Virus record (IMG/VR): IMGVR_UViG_2854395284_000002
Span: 1-27,637 of that record
Reading direction: 5' to 3' (one strand)
Source: a virus
Taxonomy: Duplodnaviria; Heunggongvirae; Uroviricota; Caudoviricetes
DNA: 27,637 bases
Made by a program: the position numbers and the translations under genes. Positions 11,650 to 16,500 of the stretch are shown piece by piece (within the stretch, counting starts at the first letter, position 1; every line of letters starts with the position of its first letter). The notes below the pieces were generated by a model. The model worked only from the letters and a program-made list of their open reading frames with translations, had not been told where the DNA came from and made no database searches.

Positions 11650-11919
11650 TTATTTATCATCTGCATAGAAATCGCAAAAATCATTCTCATCTGTAAGAGT
11701 TTTTAATTCCTTACACAAATCAAATGTCATAACGTTCTGACAACTAGAATTTGGACATCTAACTGTGCATTGACTAGGTTTTGGGTTAATACATCTTGGA
11801 ATACAAGCTTCAGACCTTGCAAAAATAAATACTGTACCACATTTGTTACAAACACAACCATACTTTCTTTCTGGATCTGGTTTCTTTATATGGTCATTAT
11901 GTACTGCTAATATTCTCAT
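11650..11919 (-). CDS. Zn-finger hypothetical protein
   Basis: CNKC...CPNSSC. Start overlaps the stop of the PAPS-reductase-like gene. Confidence 0.65.
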   Translation of the reverse strand: MRILAVHNDHIKKPDPERKYGCVCNKCGTVFIFARSEACIPRCINPKPSQCTVRCPNSSCQNVMTFDLCKELKTLTDENDFCDFYADDK

Positions 11920-12911
11920 TGTTTGATTCTCTCCTTCTCATCCATCATTTTTCTAAACTCCATGTACTTTCTTGTATATTCATAAGAATCTTTGAAAATA
12001 TTCGTTACTGCTTTATATAGTTTAGGTTCATACTTCTCAATTACATCTAATTCATTCTCAAAATCTCTTCCATAAGGACAACCACAACATCCTGTACGTT
12101 TTAATCCATATTCCGTATAACATTTGCTATGTATAATCCCATACGCTTTCTCATAATCTTCTTTATCTGAATTTTTATACCAAAACAACGGTCTGTAATT
12201 GTCATACTTATCACTCTCATCGAAGCAGTTACCATATCTAACTCTTGCACCACCCTCAGTTTTTCGTACACCAAATATATTCAGATCATAATCTTCCTCT
12301 TTTAGCAGGTTATGAATTAAATCTTTTTTCGCATATTTGCAGCATCTATTTGAAATTTTAAATGTTGGATTGTTTTGAATCATAAATTCTTTTAGATATT
12401 TATTTCTACGAATATTGAAGTTATCTGTTAGATTTGTATTGCACCACCATTGTAATGCAGATTGACATTTCGGATACTTCTTATATAATGTATCAAAGTC
12501 TTCATCTTCCCACTGAAAGTTATGTCTTTGTAACCGTTGTAAAAATTCACTTGTAATCTTAGACATAAACGGTTCTCCATAATTCTTGCAACTTGCAGGA
12601 ATTGGAATTTTAGGACGTTTCTTTACAAACGTAATATCATATCTTTCTTCAAGATATTTTAAATGATTTTTCGTGGCTTGATATTCAAGACCTGTATCAA
12701 ACCATACATAATCTACCTTGTTATCTTTATCACATCTCCAAACAATATCTAACATTACATCACTGTCTGAACCGCCAGAGATTGCACAAACAATTTTCTT
12801 ATACTTTGTATTGTTAATAATTGCCCATGCACGAATCAAGTTGTCACAAATCATTTGATTTACAGGACAACCATTTAATAATTCCTCAATTGTATTAGCT
12901 TTCTGTACCAA
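11916..12911 (-). CDS. PAPS-reductase/DndC-family PP-loop Fe-S protein (copy 2)
   Basis: SGGSDS PP-loop, RCCKYAKK, GVRKTE..R, RPLFWY and RTGCCGCPY. TTG start. Confidence 0.85.
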   Translation of the reverse strand: MVQKANTIEELLNGCPVNQMICDNLIRAWAIINNTKYKKIVCAISGGSDSDVMLDIVWRCDKDNKVDYVWFDTGLEYQATKNHLKYLEERYDITFVKKRPKIPIPASCKNYGEPFMSKITSEFLQRLQRHNFQWEDEDFDTLYKKYPKCQSALQWWCNTNLTDNFNIRRNKYLKEFMIQNNPTFKISNRCCKYAKKDLIHNLLKEEDYDLNIFGVRKTEGGARVRYGNCFDESDKYDNYRPLFWYKNSDKEDYEKAYGIIHSKCYTEYGLKRTGCCGCPYGRDFENELDVIEKYEPKLYKAVTNIFKDSYEYTRKYMEFRKMMDEKERIKQ

Positions 12912-13085
12912 TATGTACTTTCCTCACTGAAAATTATTTCATTTCAATGAGGCAAAGCCATACTTCGTGAGTGTCTTTTTACGTCACTATCACATTGCTT
13001 TTTCGATTTATATTAACCAATGATCCGTCTTCTATAAATCATCGTGACAACCTTTGCTGCACAAAGGTATTAAATACATATGGTA
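12906..13085 (-). ncRNA. Structured intergenic RNA, module copy 2
   Basis: Terminal 13-bp long-range stem (13085-13073 with 12919-12906, one bulge, one GU); 7-bp hairpin 13050-13068; 8-bp stem 13005-13040; 11-bp RBS hairpin 12922-12952. Confidence 0.65.
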
Positions 13086-13090
13086 AAAAG

Positions 13091-13447
13091 CTAACCAATC
13101 GGTAGTACAGCTTCGCAAAGTCTTTCTATGTTGTTTATTTCACAATTTACCATCTTGTGATTTGGATTATCATTATTATAATCTCTCATAAACATATCTA
13201 GCCAGAAATCAAAATACTCATCATCTGCACTTGAATCCATTACTGCATATCTATCAACTGTTTTATAATTACCTTTTTCTGTAAGATAAGATAAATTGAC
13301 TTTATATACCGGCAATGTAATTTTTGTTTTCAAGAAATTCTTTGGATGTATATTTCTTAGTTTTTCTTTTAAATCTGAATCATAAATTTCAAATACGTCA
13401 ATTCCTGTCCTTAGAGAACAGTTTTTAAAAAACTCACTCGGATGCAC
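13091..13447 (-). CDS. Small unknown protein, module copy 2 (paralog of 14954-15277)
   Basis: GTG start after GGTGG; HPK...YLTEKGNYK motif. Confidence 0.75.
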   Translation of the reverse strand: MHPSEFFKNCSLRTGIDVFEIYDSDLKEKLRNIHPKNFLKTKITLPVYKVNLSYLTEKGNYKTVDRYAVMDSSADDEYFDFWLDMFMRDYNNDNPNHKMVNCEINNIERLCEAVLPIG

Positions 13448-13477
13448 TACTTTTCACCACCTTTCTACCAATAAAAC

Positions 13478-14758
13478 CTAGAACAACGCACAACCTTGAG
13501 CCTTAAACGACTCCACCTGCTTGTCCCACTCTTCTTTTGTCCAATCAAATTCTTTCATCAAACATTTCTTACAATAGAATTTATTAACTTGTCTTCCATG
13601 TATTTTTAAGTTCATTGAAAGAACTTCCTTATGTTTTATTCTCTTATTGCACTCACAACATTTCTTATTAAAATATTGCAGCGCAATCTGTTTATCAATT
13701 CCTGTATACTTTACAAATTCATCAATAACTTCTTGTGTTGGCTCACTTCTAAACACACCACCATTCCATGCTTGAGTAAGATATTCTTCAATTGTGCAGT
13801 TCATAATCAGCCATTTCTGATTACTTATAAAATCTTCTCTTAGAATATCTCTCCATCTTTTATATGCTTTTGAATACCAATATTTATCAAGAATCCATGT
13901 TGACTTCGCATAATATGGACAAGCACAATGGCATCCAACTCTTGAATATCCTTTTTTATATTTTGGATTAACTTCAATATTTTTCCAAAATGTATAAAGC
14001 CAAACATCTAATTCCGTCCACTTTCTAATAGGAAGTATTCCTTGCCAGCATGTGTCTCCCCATTCGGAAGTATTAACCCATTCGTCTTGATAATTGCTTC
14101 TTGTATTGGATTCTTCATTTCTCATTCCCATAAAAATTAAATACGGATGCTTATTATCAAGCTGAGAGACCATAACTCCAACTTTAAAAATCCTACAACA
14201 GAATCTTGAAAATCTTGATGGAATCATAGAATCAGATTTCACATATTGATAAAACCCTTTGTCTGGATTCATGATTTTACAGTTCGGAAACCGTTTAACC
14301 ATCTTATATGTGTCAGCACAATCAAGTGATGTGTTGTTGAATATTGCTTTTGTGTTTGGATATAGTTGTCGAACTAAATGACATGTAACCATAGAATCTT
14401 TACCCATAGAAACAGGTATTATTGGAGTATATACATCATAATCTTTGATCTTTTCACGTATTAGGCATAAAGCTTCATGTTCAATTTCTCTCAAATGATT
14501 TTCTTTGAGATTGACCATTGTTCTCCAATCTATTAGGTCTACTTCAGATGAATCTTCATAAGATTTTAATTTTAGAATTTCTACTTTTTCTAGGTTATCT
14601 GATACTTTAACTCTGCAAAATTTATGTTCTACAAGTTGACTATCAAAGCCTTTTATAATCTGTTTATCAAGCCAAAAGAATCCTTCTTTTAAATAAGGTA
14701 ATTCTTCGCCAGAAGTGTCTCTTAAAAATTTGATATATTCATTGTATATCGGATTCAA
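13478..14758 (-). CDS. PAPS-reductase/DndC-family PP-loop Fe-S protein with C-terminal Zn finger (copy 1)
   Basis: SMGKDS, RFCCRIFK, GMRNEESNTR, PIRKWTELDVW, GYSRVGCHCACPY and C-terminal CCEC...YCKKC. TTG start. Confidence 0.85.
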   Translation of the reverse strand: MNPIYNEYIKFLRDTSGEELPYLKEGFFWLDKQIIKGFDSQLVEHKFCRVKVSDNLEKVEILKLKSYEDSSEVDLIDWRTMVNLKENHLREIEHEALCLIREKIKDYDVYTPIIPVSMGKDSMVTCHLVRQLYPNTKAIFNNTSLDCADTYKMVKRFPNCKIMNPDKGFYQYVKSDSMIPSRFSRFCCRIFKVGVMVSQLDNKHPYLIFMGMRNEESNTRSNYQDEWVNTSEWGDTCWQGILPIRKWTELDVWLYTFWKNIEVNPKYKKGYSRVGCHCACPYYAKSTWILDKYWYSKAYKRWRDILREDFISNQKWLIMNCTIEEYLTQAWNGGVFRSEPTQEVIDEFVKYTGIDKQIALQYFNKKCCECNKRIKHKEVLSMNLKIHGRQVNKFYCKKCLMKEFDWTKEEWDKQVESFKAQGCALF

Positions 14759-14944
14759 TTGTAATCTTCCTTTAACTTTTGGATTTTACCAATTAGTTAA
14801 AGGAGTCTATCTTATGCTTAGAAACCAATTATTTTAGGTCATAGTGTAAGATTTTACGTTTTAACCTTATGTCGCTATGTTGCTTTGGTAATACAAGCCA
14901 TCTCGCTATACAACCCTGATTACAGGGATTTGATTACAATTGAA
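14754..14944 (-). ncRNA. Structured intergenic RNA, module copy 1
   Basis: Perfect 13-bp terminal inverted repeat (14754-14766 / 14932-14944); hairpin CCCTG-TAAT-CAGGG 14914-14927; 10-bp RBS hairpin 14768-14804. Confidence 0.65.
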
Positions 14945-14953
14945 AAATATTTA

Positions 14954-15277
14954 TTATTCAAGTTCTAAATAAAGTTTTCCGAAATAAACCGCATCAAGAA
15001 TTTCTACGTTTGATATCGTTCTTTCCGGATGTTTTTCATTAAGTTCTTTAATATGATTCATGAATTCCTGATCGACAGAATCCCATGCATTCTTATCTAA
15101 GAACATATACTTTACTGCTTCTTTTGGATTTCCACGAGCAGTTGTATACTTATATTTAATCTTCCAAGTTGGAATAGGAATTACTTCACTTGCAATCTGT
15201 TTTGGATGGCAGTTTTTAACTTCTTCCATTTCACTGTCATCGTACTTACAAACTGCTTGTAATTCAGATATTTTCAT
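14954..15277 (-). CDS. Small unknown protein, module copy 1 (paralog of 13091-13447)
   Basis: AGGAGG precedes ATG 15277; HPK...YTTARGNPK motif. Confidence 0.75.
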   Translation of the reverse strand: MKISELQAVCKYDDSEMEEVKNCHPKQIASEVIPIPTWKIKYKYTTARGNPKEAVKYMFLDKNAWDSVDQEFMNHIKELNEKHPERTISNVEILDAVYFGKLYLELE

Positions 15278-15350
15278 TTTGACTCTCACCTCCTGATTAT
15301 TTATTCTCTACTTCGACAAAAATCAAATGAAAAATTAATTTCATAATTAG

Positions 15351-15540
15351 AAGCACGTTCATTTCCGTACTTCATGAGAGCATCCTTGTCCCTGACTACG
15401 TGAGGGTTGCGGTTTGTTCCAGAGTATTATATTCTGAATTCACAGGTTCAACTCATACACCCATCGGTTGACTGAAATATTGCTAACAGTCTTCACCTTT
15501 ACCTTTTCACCATCTCAGACTTTCAGTTCCTTTCACCGCA
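15351..15540 (-). ncRNA. Candidate multi-stem ncRNA
   Basis: ORF-free and relatively GC-rich. TGCGGT/ACCGCA encloses ACTGAAA/TTTCAGT, GTCT/AGAC, CAAC/GTTG and TTCAGA/TCTGGA, followed by CCCT/AGGG and GAAGTACG/CGTGCTTC hairpins. Confidence 0.45.
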
Positions 15541-15557
15541 TTTATCTTTTTATTATT

Positions 15558-15743
15558 TTATTTCCAATTAAAATACGGAGTATATCTTCCACAGAAAAGA
15601 TTGCAGCATCTTTCCTTATATACAAACTTATTATTCTCTAACACACATTCTCTAACCATAGATTTTCCGCACATCGGACATTTCTTTGTGATTTTACTAT
15701 TTTTATTGCCAATCTTTACTTCATATCCAAGTAATTCATGCAT
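15558..15743 (-). CDS. Small Zn-ribbon protein
   Basis: CPMC...CCNLFC; GGGGG RBS-like tract upstream. Confidence 0.55.
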   Translation of the reverse strand: MHELLGYEVKIGNKNSKITKKCPMCGKSMVRECVLENNKFVYKERCCNLFCGRYTPYFNWK

Positions 15744-15765
15744 AAATTAATTACCCCCATGACAT

Positions 15766-16500
15766 TTATTCTCTTATCTCAAATAATTTTTCCACTGCTT
15801 TTACACGCTTGTTATTATCAATTGTTCTTTTTACTTCTTGTTCCCAAATACAATCCCATCCTGAAGGTGCTTTATGTTCACTAACCAGAACAATATTCTT
15901 TTCGCTCATTTTTTCCGCCCAATTCCAAAATCTATCATAATCAAAGTTTTTGCTTGTACCATATTGTTTTACTCCGCAATATGGAATATCACAGTAGAAT
16001 AAACAGTCAATTCTATCAGAATATAACTCTTCATAATCTCCGCATTGGAACAGAATATCTTTTAATCGTGGAATCTGTTCTAATAGGTTTCTTCTTGCTT
16101 CATCATAATAATTTCTTTCAGTTCCAGCTTTTGTACATACAACGCCTGAATATCCACCATCAAAGAATCGTCCGTTATAGCTCGCAAGAAATCCAACTGC
16201 TCCAATATACCAGCCAGGATATGTATTTAAGTCTTTGTTGAAGCATTCTCTTACTTTTGAGTAATGTTCTTTTGTAATAAAATCTGGAAGACTTTGAATC
16301 CGATTTAGATTCTTGAATATTTCTATAAGATATTTATGATTATCGGATGCAATTTTTGTATCACATTGAATCTTGTCAATGATATTGCATCCACCACAGA
16401 ACGGCTCTATATATGTTTTTATATCATAATCTTTTATTCTCTGCTGAATAATCGGAATTATATATTTCGATATTCGAGACTTTGATCCCATGTATTTCAT
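15766..16500 (-). CDS. D12-class (Dam-like) N6-adenine DNA methyltransferase
   Basis: KYMGSK, YIEPFCGG (SAM-binding motif I) and FYCDIPY (DPPY variant). Confidence 0.9.
   Translation of the reverse strand: MKYMGSKSRISKYIIPIIQQRIKDYDIKTYIEPFCGGCNIIDKIQCDTKIASDNHKYLIEIFKNLNRIQSLPDFITKEHYSKVRECFNKDLNTYPGWYIGAVGFLASYNGRFFDGGYSGVVCTKAGTERNYYDEARRNLLEQIPRLKDILFQCGDYEELYSDRIDCLFYCDIPYCGVKQYGTSKNFDYDRFWNWAEKMSEKNIVLVSEHKAPSGWDCIWEQEVKRTIDNNKRVKAVEKLFEIRE

Follow-up and report, generated by a model that had tools for sequence, protein, structure and literature searches.

Two conserved structured leader RNAs upstream of PP-loop genes in a large gut phage

Two small ORF–leader–PP-loop gene modules

The window, by which we mean the whole 27,637-nt stretch of DNA analyzed here, belongs to a large gut phage with a 143-kb genome. 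Its minus strand carries two spacers; each has a small ORF on one side and, on the other, a PAPS-reductase-like (PP-loop) gene that starts with TTG (Table 1). The two small proteins share 29% identity (E 2e-12). The C-terminus of PP-loop protein 1 is Cys-rich, and PP-loop gene 2 has a weak match to the TilS domain in NCBIfam (E 8e-4). Each small ORF stops 0–9 nt from the 5′ arm of P0, a long-range helix described below: the consecutive TAA TAA stops of small ORF 1 end 9 nt ahead of the 13-bp arm in leader 1, and the outer arm of leader 2, UGGUUAGC, shares nucleotides with the UAG stop that ends small ORF 2. In leader-1 homologs the distance ranges between 9 and 17 nt. No further copies of either leader family were found in the 143-kb genome.

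Table 1. Features of the two modules, numbered by position in the window
Feature	Position	Strand	Description or basis
Small ORF 1	14954..15277	-	107 aa from ATG; strong SD 5′ of the ORF
Leader RNA 1 (spacer-1 family, class A)	14759..14953	-	fold z, covariance-model matches, covariation
Leader 1 P0 5′ arm (TTCAATTGTAATC)	14932..14944	-	13-bp perfect helix; compensatory changes at 3 pairs
Leader 1 P1 hairpin CCCUG/CAGGG (14914-14927) and invariant GGUUGU (14910-14915)	14910..14927	-	fold, covariation, conservation
Leader 1 P2 (UGU..ACA, GC..GC) around hairpin P2a (14882-14898)	14870..14912	-	covariation
Leader 1 pseudoknot region	14809..14866	-	P3, P4, P4a; covariation and loop conservation
Leader 1 P5, 10-bp SD hairpin (14795-14804 with 14768-14777)	14768..14804	-	3′ arm is the Shine-Dalgarno AAAGGA; covariation
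Leader 1 P0 3′ arm (GATTACAATTGAA)	14754..14766	-	contains the TTG start, 14756-14758
PP-loop gene 1	13478..14758	-	426 aa, PAPS_reduct (Pfam E 9e-27), phrog_424, TTG start
Small ORF 2	13091..13447	-	118 aa; paralog of small ORF 1
Leader RNA 2 (spacer-2 family, class A2)	12912..13090	-	fold z, covariance-model matches, covariation
Leader 2 P0 5′ arm: inner UACCAUAUGUAUU (13073-13085), outer UGGUUAGC (13090-13097)	13073..13097	-	fold, covariation
Leader 2 P1 ACCUUUG/CAAAGGU (13050-13068), GGUUGU (13047-13052), start of P2 UUGUCAC	13044..13068	-	fold, covariation
Leader 2 P2a (13033-13040 with 13005-13012), P2 3′ arm (12987-12993), P3	12967..13040	-	covariation
Leader 2 P5, 11-bp SD hairpin (12942-12952 with 12922-12932)	12922..12952	-	3′ arm is the Shine-Dalgarno GAGGA; covariation
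Leader 2 P0 3′ arm: AGUACAUAUUGGUA (12906-12919), outer AAAGCUAA (12895-12902)	12895..12919	-	TTG start 12909-12911 inside
PP-loop gene 2	11916..12911	-	331 aa, PAPS_reduct (Pfam E 3.5e-12), phrog_424, TTG start

The arrangement recurs in related phages. Small ORF 1 has 47 homologs, always followed by a gap of ~195–245 nt and then, where the next gene was assigned, by PAPS_reduct; small ORF 2 has 61 homologs, and each of those on the four contigs that were fetched has a leader and then PAPS_reduct downstream. The order of small ORF, leader and PP-loop gene is kept down to ~50% small-protein identity, and the leaders are always linked to this one enzyme family. Among more distant PP-loop homologs (43–55% identity), most have no leader but a short SD spacer of the ordinary kind. 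A related leader type without the small ORF carries, from our reading of the sequence, a 13-codon mini-ORF that ends in hairpin P1. Leader type B and locus L066 retain the hairpin followed by GGUUGU, and type B also retains ACGUAAAA; the ORF upstream of L066 has no significant similarity to the small proteins.

Both small proteins are acidic and lack a Cys4 motif, and no zinc finger or RNA-binding fold was recognized. The AF2 model of small protein 1 (pLDDT 94) has an alpha-alpha-beta-beta-alpha-beta fold, for which a search returned no PDB match at E ≤ 0.001 and a single look-alike in AFDB, probably a member of the same family.

Conserved RNA structure on the sense strand

The whole-leader fold z-scores were -6.16 for leader 1 and -6.21 for leader 2, with 0/200 shuffles folding as well, while the antisense strands folded worse (z -4.7 and -4.2; for copy 2, -43.1 versus -59.7 kcal/mol on the sense strand). 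A preliminary description of this DNA had placed three elements in both spacers: a 13-bp long-range stem (P0) whose partner contains the TTG start, a hairpin (P1; CCCTG/CAGGG in one copy, ACCTTTG/CAAAGGT in the other) ending in GGTTGT, and a 10–11-bp hairpin (P5) burying the Shine-Dalgarno sequence. All were located as claimed, the long-range stem in copy 2 being bulged. That stem is beyond chance: the 13-bp Watson-Crick run of leader 1 has p = 0.0004, and the duplex energy between the 5′ arm and the start region has p = 0.005 in copy 1 and p = 0.0003 in copy 2.

Homologous leaders were gathered from IMG/VR, ENA and Logan contigs. Model R2, built for the leader-1 family, gave 30 matches and model R1, built for the leader-2 family, gave 36, all in one orientation relative to the gene. 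In alignments fitted to the model, which gave the largest counts (MAFFT-only alignments of less diverse sets gave 5/53 and 4/55 pairs), compensatory changes were present at 24/56 pairs in the spacer-1 family, compared with 9.3 ± 1.9 in column shuffles and 3–7 in slid controls. The spacer-2 family had such changes at 19/53 pairs, compared with 10.2 ± 1.7 in shuffles and 2–4 in slid controls. On the sense strand G-U cells outnumbered A-C cells by 70:23 in leader 1 and 112:15 in leader 2. Nucleotide identity was 80–86% across the leaders, 72–76% in the flanking coding sequences and 70–72% in the small ORF. Conservation spans the whole leader: 64% of the unpaired columns are at least 95% conserved, and the unpaired words GGUUGU, UAU(U/C)ACC and UAAAACGUAAAA are invariant. 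Based on the fold z-scores, the compensatory changes, the G-U excess, the leader identity and the conservation of unpaired columns, we conclude that each spacer is a conserved structured RNA acting on the sense strand. The same conclusion had been proposed earlier from a comparison of the two putative paralogs with each other, which is not a test of covariation; it is the homologs that support it.

In leader 1 all five pairs of hairpin P2a covary (5/5), and its loop is the conserved UAU(U/C)ACC. In the pseudoknot region, P3 pairs GGU (14864-14866) with ACU (14843-14845), and its pair 90:109 occurs as C-G and as U-A, in 12 sequences each; P4 pairs AUCUUA (14847-14852) with UAAGAU (14809-14814) and has two covarying pairs; and P4a pairs 14837-14840 with 14823-14826 and has four. 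Both stems of the resulting H-type pseudoknot thus show covariation, and its invariant loop UAAAACGUAAAA contains ACGUAAAA at 14852-14859. A candidate anti-anti-SD pairing in leader 1 (GGUUAAA with UUUAAC) showed no covariation and was dropped. P0 of leader 2 is imperfect as well as bulged, and seven of its pairs covary, as do 7/8 pairs of P2a. P3 of leader 2 (12982-12987 with 12967-12973) carries ACGUAAAA at 12977-12984 and includes an A-U to G-C change. An alternative extension in leader 2 pairs 12954-12964 with the start region.

Neither spacer matches a named RNA family, in agreement with the novelty suggested by the preliminary description. Rfam 15 at the gathering score gave 0 matches to any family over the whole window, and relaxing the search to E up to 10 over 12700-15100 returned only noise (snoRNA and CRISPR models, E 5.9–8.8). 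A literature search for an RNA motif associated with phage PAPS reductases found nothing relevant. The PAGEV motif, considered as a candidate PAPS-reductase-associated motif, was set aside because the paper describes a plasmid-associated motif of Vibrionales. The leaders therefore represent two uncatalogued structured RNA families with strong covariation, present in dozens of related phages of a widespread 100–200-kb gut group. The genes they precede are members of the phage "PAPS reductase" (PP-loop) family, about which little is understood, and lie beside DNA methyltransferases.

Both leaders follow a common plan, with the long-range helix over the start codon, a 5′ hairpin then GGUUGU, a ACGUAAAA loop and the SD-burying hairpin. 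It had also been claimed that they share a series of words in the same order, which proved to be at chance level: the colinear chain scored 48, against 42.4 ± 6.0 in dinucleotide shuffles (p = 0.20) and 39.7 ± 7.0 in random genome windows (p = 0.13). Within the families, conservation is confined to GGTTGT, ATAG(C/T)GAC and ACGTAAAA; it does not extend to AAAGCAA and ACACT, which in copy 1 are arms of covarying helices. BLAST detected no similarity between leader 1 and leader 2. The spacer-2 family models R1 and R3 scored leader 1 at 10.4 and 9.8 bits, not significant (E 0.21–0.92), these being the best or joint-best non-self sense matches in the window, and the spacer-1 family model R2 detected none of leader 2, type B and L066. 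Since neither word order nor covariance models link the two leaders, we infer the proposed paralogy of the RNAs from the duplicated flanking genes and the shared topology.

Predicted masking of the ribosome site and a proposed translational lock

In both predicted structures the Shine-Dalgarno sequence and the start codon are paired. Opening positions -18..+12 in silico costs 28.7 kcal/mol in leader 1 and 21.5 kcal/mol in leader 2, the two highest values among the 39 genes of the window, for which the median is 7.3 and the next highest 13.5 kcal/mol. This predicted masking favors a cis-regulatory role. On balance, we lean toward the view that the leaders are double locks on translation, acting in cis, which ribosomes translating the upstream small ORF would open in part and which would require a second input as well. 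Each spacer would be the 5′ leader of its PP-loop gene, in which P5 would pair the Shine-Dalgarno sequence and P0 would pair the weak TTG start with sequence just after the small-ORF stop, or overlapping it in copy 2, giving a default state that is predicted to be OFF. Ribosomes finishing the small ORF would then unwind P0 at its 5′ arm and free the adjacent start codon, so that the enzyme would be produced only alongside the small protein.

When the footprint of a terminating ribosome was held unpaired, the predicted cost of opening the start codon fell in both copies: in copy 2 from 12.9 to 5.5 kcal/mol, and in copy 1 from 12.5 to 8.7–6.7 kcal/mol. The cost of the Shine-Dalgarno sequence stayed at 13–15 kcal/mol, and the whole ribosome site still cost 17–18 kcal/mol in silico, above every other gene, suggesting that coupling alone is insufficient. 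Because coupling would leave both P5 and the conserved multi-helix core closed (in leader 1 the core includes the pseudoknot with its invariant UAAAACGUAAAA loop), a second input that recognizes the core is probably needed. Candidates are the small protein, as Com for mom, the enzyme, or a metabolite. Such a lock would serve to keep a nucleic-acid-modifying enzyme under tight control. Three further observations weigh against this proposal: the distance between stop and arm varies among leader-1 homologs, a 190-nt multi-helix pseudoknot RNA is more elaborate than simple coupling requires, and the small protein is acidic, with neither a zinc finger nor a recognized RNA-binding fold.

The coat-replicase "Min Jou" interaction of MS2 is a long-range translational coupling in RNA coliphages. 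As in MS2, a long-distance helix is predicted here to join the downstream start region to sequence at the upstream ORF, and upstream ribosomes could unmask the downstream start. The differences are that the 5′ arm here is found immediately past the stop codon, or overlaps it, and is not internal to the ORF; that the Shine-Dalgarno sequence has a locking hairpin of its own; and that the 170 nt in between fold into a structured core that is conserved. A second parallel is phage Mu, where Com opens a translation-inhibition structure of the mom mRNA (PMC6483171). Both systems have a small ORF directly upstream on the same transcript, an RNA structure that hides the Shine-Dalgarno sequence and start codon of the enzyme, and an enzyme, encoded amid DNA-modification genes, that probably has to be tightly controlled. 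Com, however, is a 62-aa zinc finger, whereas the proteins here are acidic, 107–118 aa long and free of Cys4; and mom has one hairpin, compared with ~180–195 nt and 6–9 helices here.

Other readings of the leaders

It is possible, though doubtful in our judgment, that the leaders form a new class of sensing RNAs, in which the core (the pseudoknot UAAAACGUAAAA loop and the hairpin with GGUUGU) binds a metabolite, the small protein or the enzyme. If so, small protein, RNA and PP-loop enzyme would make up a three-part unit gating or joining nucleic-acid modification, the leaders would be a functional alternative, in abundant human-gut phages, to the DNA flip-switches of sister phages, and any ligand would point to the function of the enzymes. 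The leaders are compact and directly testable.

A metabolite riboswitch, in which junctions and pseudoknot would be an aptamer whose ligand stabilizes or destabilizes P0 and P5 and so switches PP-loop translation, seems to us unlikely. The leaders resemble translational riboswitches as multi-stem RNAs with invariant junctions and a pseudoknot, placed upstream of one gene family with a sequestered Shine-Dalgarno sequence. The several helices with invariant unpaired GGUUGU, UAU(U/C)ACC and UAAAACGUAAAA are those generally expected of a conserved aptamer, the covariation in both stems of the pseudoknot, the costly ribosome site (21.5 and 28.7 kcal/mol), which has the form of a generic expression platform, and the constant linkage to one enzyme family agree with it, and the retention of the hairpin with GGUUGU in type B and L066, and of ACGUAAAA in type B, points the same way. 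They differ from known riboswitches in that no Rfam riboswitch matched, even at E up to 10, and in that a search for a mutually exclusive ON structure with covariation support found none. Moreover, the two cores are very different and neither model detects the other, so that one shared ligand pocket is not evident, and no established pathway for these enzymes suggests a ligand.

We consider it improbable that the P0 duplex is cleaved (by RNase III, for example) to release a ~170-nt product that would function together with the small protein and the PP-loop enzyme, whether as a cofactor, a substrate or a decoy. P0 does extend to ~18–26 bp when its extensions are counted, the three-part module is both conserved and duplicated, and PP-loop enzymes include RNA-modifying members, to which the weak TilS-domain match of gene 2 may be relevant. 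There is also precedent for a phage DNA-modification enzyme with an RNA co-substrate in Mom, which uses Gly-tRNA (PMC13219725). However, cleavage of P0 would fall within or next to the enzyme's start codon, burial of the Shine-Dalgarno sequence has no role in such a model, and a scan of the sense strand inside either leader for sigma-70-type promoters and for terminators found neither of the leader's own.

T4 e, soc and I-TevI are established cases of temporal masking of ribosome binding sites. A similar scheme here, with early read-through transcripts hiding the ribosome site and a late or phage-specific internal promoter giving short translated ones, would account for sites hidden by upstream sequence, but we give it very little credence given the lack of a sigma-70-like promoter on the sense strand of both leaders, the ability of P5 alone, which most internal transcripts would keep, to hide the Shine-Dalgarno sequence, and conservation over the whole leader and not of a promoter only.

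Just as far-fetched, in our view, is an inverton, in which a recombinase would flip a segment that has the P0 arms as its inverted repeats, and so connect or disconnect the gene start. The arms do form 13-bp inverted repeats (perfect in copy 1), the right one holding the start codon, and relatives carry truly invertible ~150-bp cassettes at exactly the same position 5′ of the same PP-loop genes, apparently for the same purpose of gating modification genes. Against this, 0/30 leader-1 and 0/36 leader-2 instances were flipped (0/66, compared with 3/10 for the cassettes), and flipped-junction patterns had 0 true matches in IMG/VR, three raw matches being unrelated. Metagenome contigs of leader 1 gave 0 flipped junctions compared with 6 normal ones. 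The copy-2 arms are imperfect and bulged, and the covariation of internal helices and the sense-strand excess of G-U over A-C are of the RNA type.

The same gene start in sister phages carries either an invertible DNA cassette or an RNA leader, which suggests strong selection for tight or variable expression of the enzyme and allows two ways of regulating one gene to be compared in nature. Among the relatives, the cassettes of loci L139 and L140, and likewise those of L070 and L072, are inverted with respect to each other up to the start codon, and across ten loci 7 cassettes were in the forward and 3 in the reversed orientation.

Two structured leaders conserved as RNA

Both spacers are predicted to fold far more stably than dinucleotide shuffles (-54.6 kcal/mol, z -6.16 for spacer 1; -59.7 kcal/mol, z -6.21 for spacer 2). 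The minimum-energy folds have a common outline. The TTG start lies inside the 3′ arm of a long-range closing helix (P0), GGUUGU comes after a 5′ hairpin (P1), and beyond the internal helices the Shine-Dalgarno (SD) sequence forms the 3′ arm of a last hairpin (P5). Comparison with shuffles gave p = 0.0004 for the 13-bp perfect P0 helix of copy 1, and pairing of the 5′ arm to the start region, judged by duplex energy, gave p = 0.005 (copy 1) and p = 0.0003 (copy 2). The stems and words named in the preliminary description were all found in place. The words it reported as shared between the spacers in the same order, however, occur at chance level (p 0.13-0.20), and homologs vary freely at two of them, AAAGCAA and ACACT.

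Protein-guided searches of IMG/VR for homologs of the two enzymes yielded 68 and 80 loci, and the regions upstream fall into a few types: A (that of spacer 1), A2 (that of spacer 2), B and C. Type B keeps the hairpin and the GGUUGU that follows it, plus ACGUAAAA, and type C is a short cassette very different from the other three. Further leaders were gathered through small-protein homologs in ENA and Logan contigs, reaching phages in which the small protein is only ~50% identical. Small-ORF homologs are followed every time by a gap of about 130-245 nt, and the next gene is PAPS_reduct wherever assigned; in contigs L234/L235 it is an unassigned 236-aa gene.

In alignments fitted to the covariance models, 93% of cells pair in family A (24 distinct sequences) and 24 of 56 pairs changed on both sides, against 9.3 ± 1.9 in column shuffles and 3-7 in slid controls, and 97% of cells pair in family A2 (23 sequences) with 19 of 53 pairs compensatory, against 10.2 ± 1.7 and 2-4. 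MAFFT-only alignments of closer relatives gave 5/53 and 4/55 compensatory pairs. Every family A helix is supported by the covariance-model alignment. One 3-bp stem, GGY/RCC, is C-G in 12 sequences and U-A in 12, and together with a 6-bp helix (AUCUUA/UAAGAU) it makes a pseudoknot whose loop holds the invariant UAAAACGUAAAA. Conservation of at least 95% was found in 64% of unpaired columns and 52% of paired ones.

Three independent observations argue for function as sense-strand RNA. On that strand G-U pairs greatly outnumber A-C mismatches (70:23 and 112:15 cells). For copy 2 the predicted fold of the sense strand is 16.6 kcal/mol more stable than that of the complementary strand. Between phages whose flanking coding sequences share 70-76% identity, leader A reaches 80-86%. 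Neither leader matches an Rfam family, even at E up to 10. We conclude that each spacer carries a conserved structured RNA, as first proposed, and that the two are new leader RNA families. PAGEV, considered as a PAPS-related motif, was ruled out as a plasmid motif.

Some leader-2 homologs (L073:2792-3008, and L253-L255 at about 1985-2010) have a ~25-nt extra hairpin between internal helix P3 and the AGUAUGGCUUU segment, a site that tolerates insertions in this family. Type B leaders (loci L009:2860-3003, L010, L013, L044 and L061) lie 5′ of homologs of the 426-aa enzyme and lack the 110-aa small ORF; they carry instead a mini-ORF of 13 codons (MKILRTRKESTLS), which has an SD-like sequence and ends inside the P1 hairpin.

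A module present twice

The window forms the opening 27.6 kb of a virus record of 143 kb and 35% G+C; the genes in this region lie on the minus strand. The module, a small ORF, a spacer and a PAPS_reduct-domain (PP-loop) gene, occurs twice in tandem, between a D12 adenine methyltransferase upstream and, on the downstream side, an NAD-dependent DNA ligase.

Components of the two module copies in the window
Copy	Feature	Positions	Strand
1	Small ORF	14954-15277	-
1	Spacer	14759-14953	-
1	PAPS_reduct-domain gene, TTG start	13478-14758	-
2	Small ORF	13091-13447	-
2	Spacer	12912-13090	-
2	PAPS_reduct-domain gene, TTG start	11916-12911	-

At 29% identity (E 2e-12) the small proteins are paralogs, and the two enzymes are mutually distant (E 0.002), with a phrog_424 match in both. 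The flanking genes thus indicate that the module was duplicated. The leaders had been described as paralogous RNAs, and here the duplicated genes and the common topology stood, but BLAST detected no similarity between leaders 1 and 2, the A model did not detect spacer 2, and the A2 models matched spacer 1 at only 10.4 and 9.8 bits (E 0.21-0.92). These matches span exactly the spacer and are the best or joint-best non-self sense-strand matches of the A2 models in the window. It is therefore plausible, though not proven, that the RNAs share an ancestor; what the leaders demonstrably have in common is the topology and two short motifs, both also present in type B. The outline of a hairpin followed by GGUUGU, a closing helix with the TTG start and an SD hairpin also occurs in L066, a locus from a distant, probably TGA-recoded phage.

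Among distant homologs of the 426-aa enzyme, an in-frame TGA replaces a conserved Trp codon in L066:3001-4257, and L068:3001-4272 contains an in-frame TAG. Recoding of stop codons is probable in these phages. DNA methyltransferase genes (D12, N6_N4, C5; one with an intein) regularly precede the module (contigs L229, L230, L234 and L238; 15766-16506 in the window), which fits a DNA-modification neighborhood. A non-coding stretch of ~270 nt (15290-15557, minus strand) lies 5′ of small ORF 1 and 3′ of a 61-aa Cys-containing ORF (15558-15743); folding of 15280-15770, the stretch with its flanks, was not clearly more stable than that of shuffles (z -1.4).

Masking of the ribosome site

Opening positions -18 to +12 is computed to cost 28.7 kcal/mol for enzyme gene 1 and 21.5 for enzyme gene 2, the two highest values of 39 window genes (median 7.3, next highest 13.5), which bears out the proposal that the SD sequence is buried and the TTG start paired. 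The small ORFs cost only 5.4 and 9.7 kcal/mol. In these models masking is the clearest functional signal of the leaders, and we conclude that they are predicted locks on translation of phage PP-loop genes. A sense-strand scan inside both leaders found no sigma-70-like promoter and no terminator, which argues against transcription attenuation and a T4-type internal promoter of the sigma-70 kind.

In copy 2 the UAG stop of the small ORF falls within the outer part of P0, and in copy 1 P0 begins just 3′ of the TAA TAA stops; this geometry fits the idea that a ribosome ending translation of the small ORF frees the start codon. The start-codon region, which costs 12.9 kcal/mol in copy 2 and 12.5 in copy 1, needed 5.5 and 8.7-6.7, respectively, once the ribosome footprint was kept unpaired; because the SD hairpin still costs 13-15 and the whole site 17-18 kcal/mol, such coupling would be a partial key at best. 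The nearby terminating ribosome might re-initiate without need of the SD sequence, or P5 might be opened by a second factor, as the elaborate and conserved core suggests. We lean slightly toward opening linked to the upstream ORF together with a second input; the main rival, a small-molecule riboswitch, seems unlikely.

Among worked examples the nearest is com-mom of phage Mu, where a translation-inhibition structure covers the start of a DNA-modification gene and is opened by a small protein encoded upstream (PMC6483171). Unlike Com, the small proteins here are acidic and without a zinc finger, and their predicted alpha-alpha-beta-beta-alpha-beta unit (pLDDT 94) had no significant match in a structural search.

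Invertible cassettes at the same gene start

An invertible DNA switch was considered for the leaders, as cassette C in relatives truly inverts: it covers ~150 bp directly 5′ of the same PP-loop genes, as far as their start codon, and is inverted between L139:2845-2999 and L140 and between L070:2848-2995 and L072 (seven forward and three reversed among ten loci). For both leaders the test was negative. All covariance-model matches lie in one orientation (30/30 for leader 1, 36/36 for leader 2), flipped-junction patterns had no true match in IMG/VR, metagenome contigs gave 0 flipped against 6 normal junctions for leader 1, and internal covariation and G-U bias are not expected of a DNA switch.

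Cassette C is bounded by short inverted repeats that include the start codon (TTTTTTCAT/ATGAAAAAA; AGTATTTT/AAAATACT). At loci L046-L052, with which L065 is listed among the cassette loci, the inversion takes in the first 56 codons.

From sequence comparison, the RNA leader and the cassette appear to be alternative devices at the same gene start. Locus L006 (2700-3000), compared with window 14759-15340, carries a C-like cassette in place of small ORF 1 and leader 1, with the left junction at a palindrome, ATGAAATTAATTTTTCAT (window about 15330), and the right junction exactly at the TTG start. Since the 426-aa enzyme is kept at 93% identity across this exchange, the leader module behaves as a swappable cassette.
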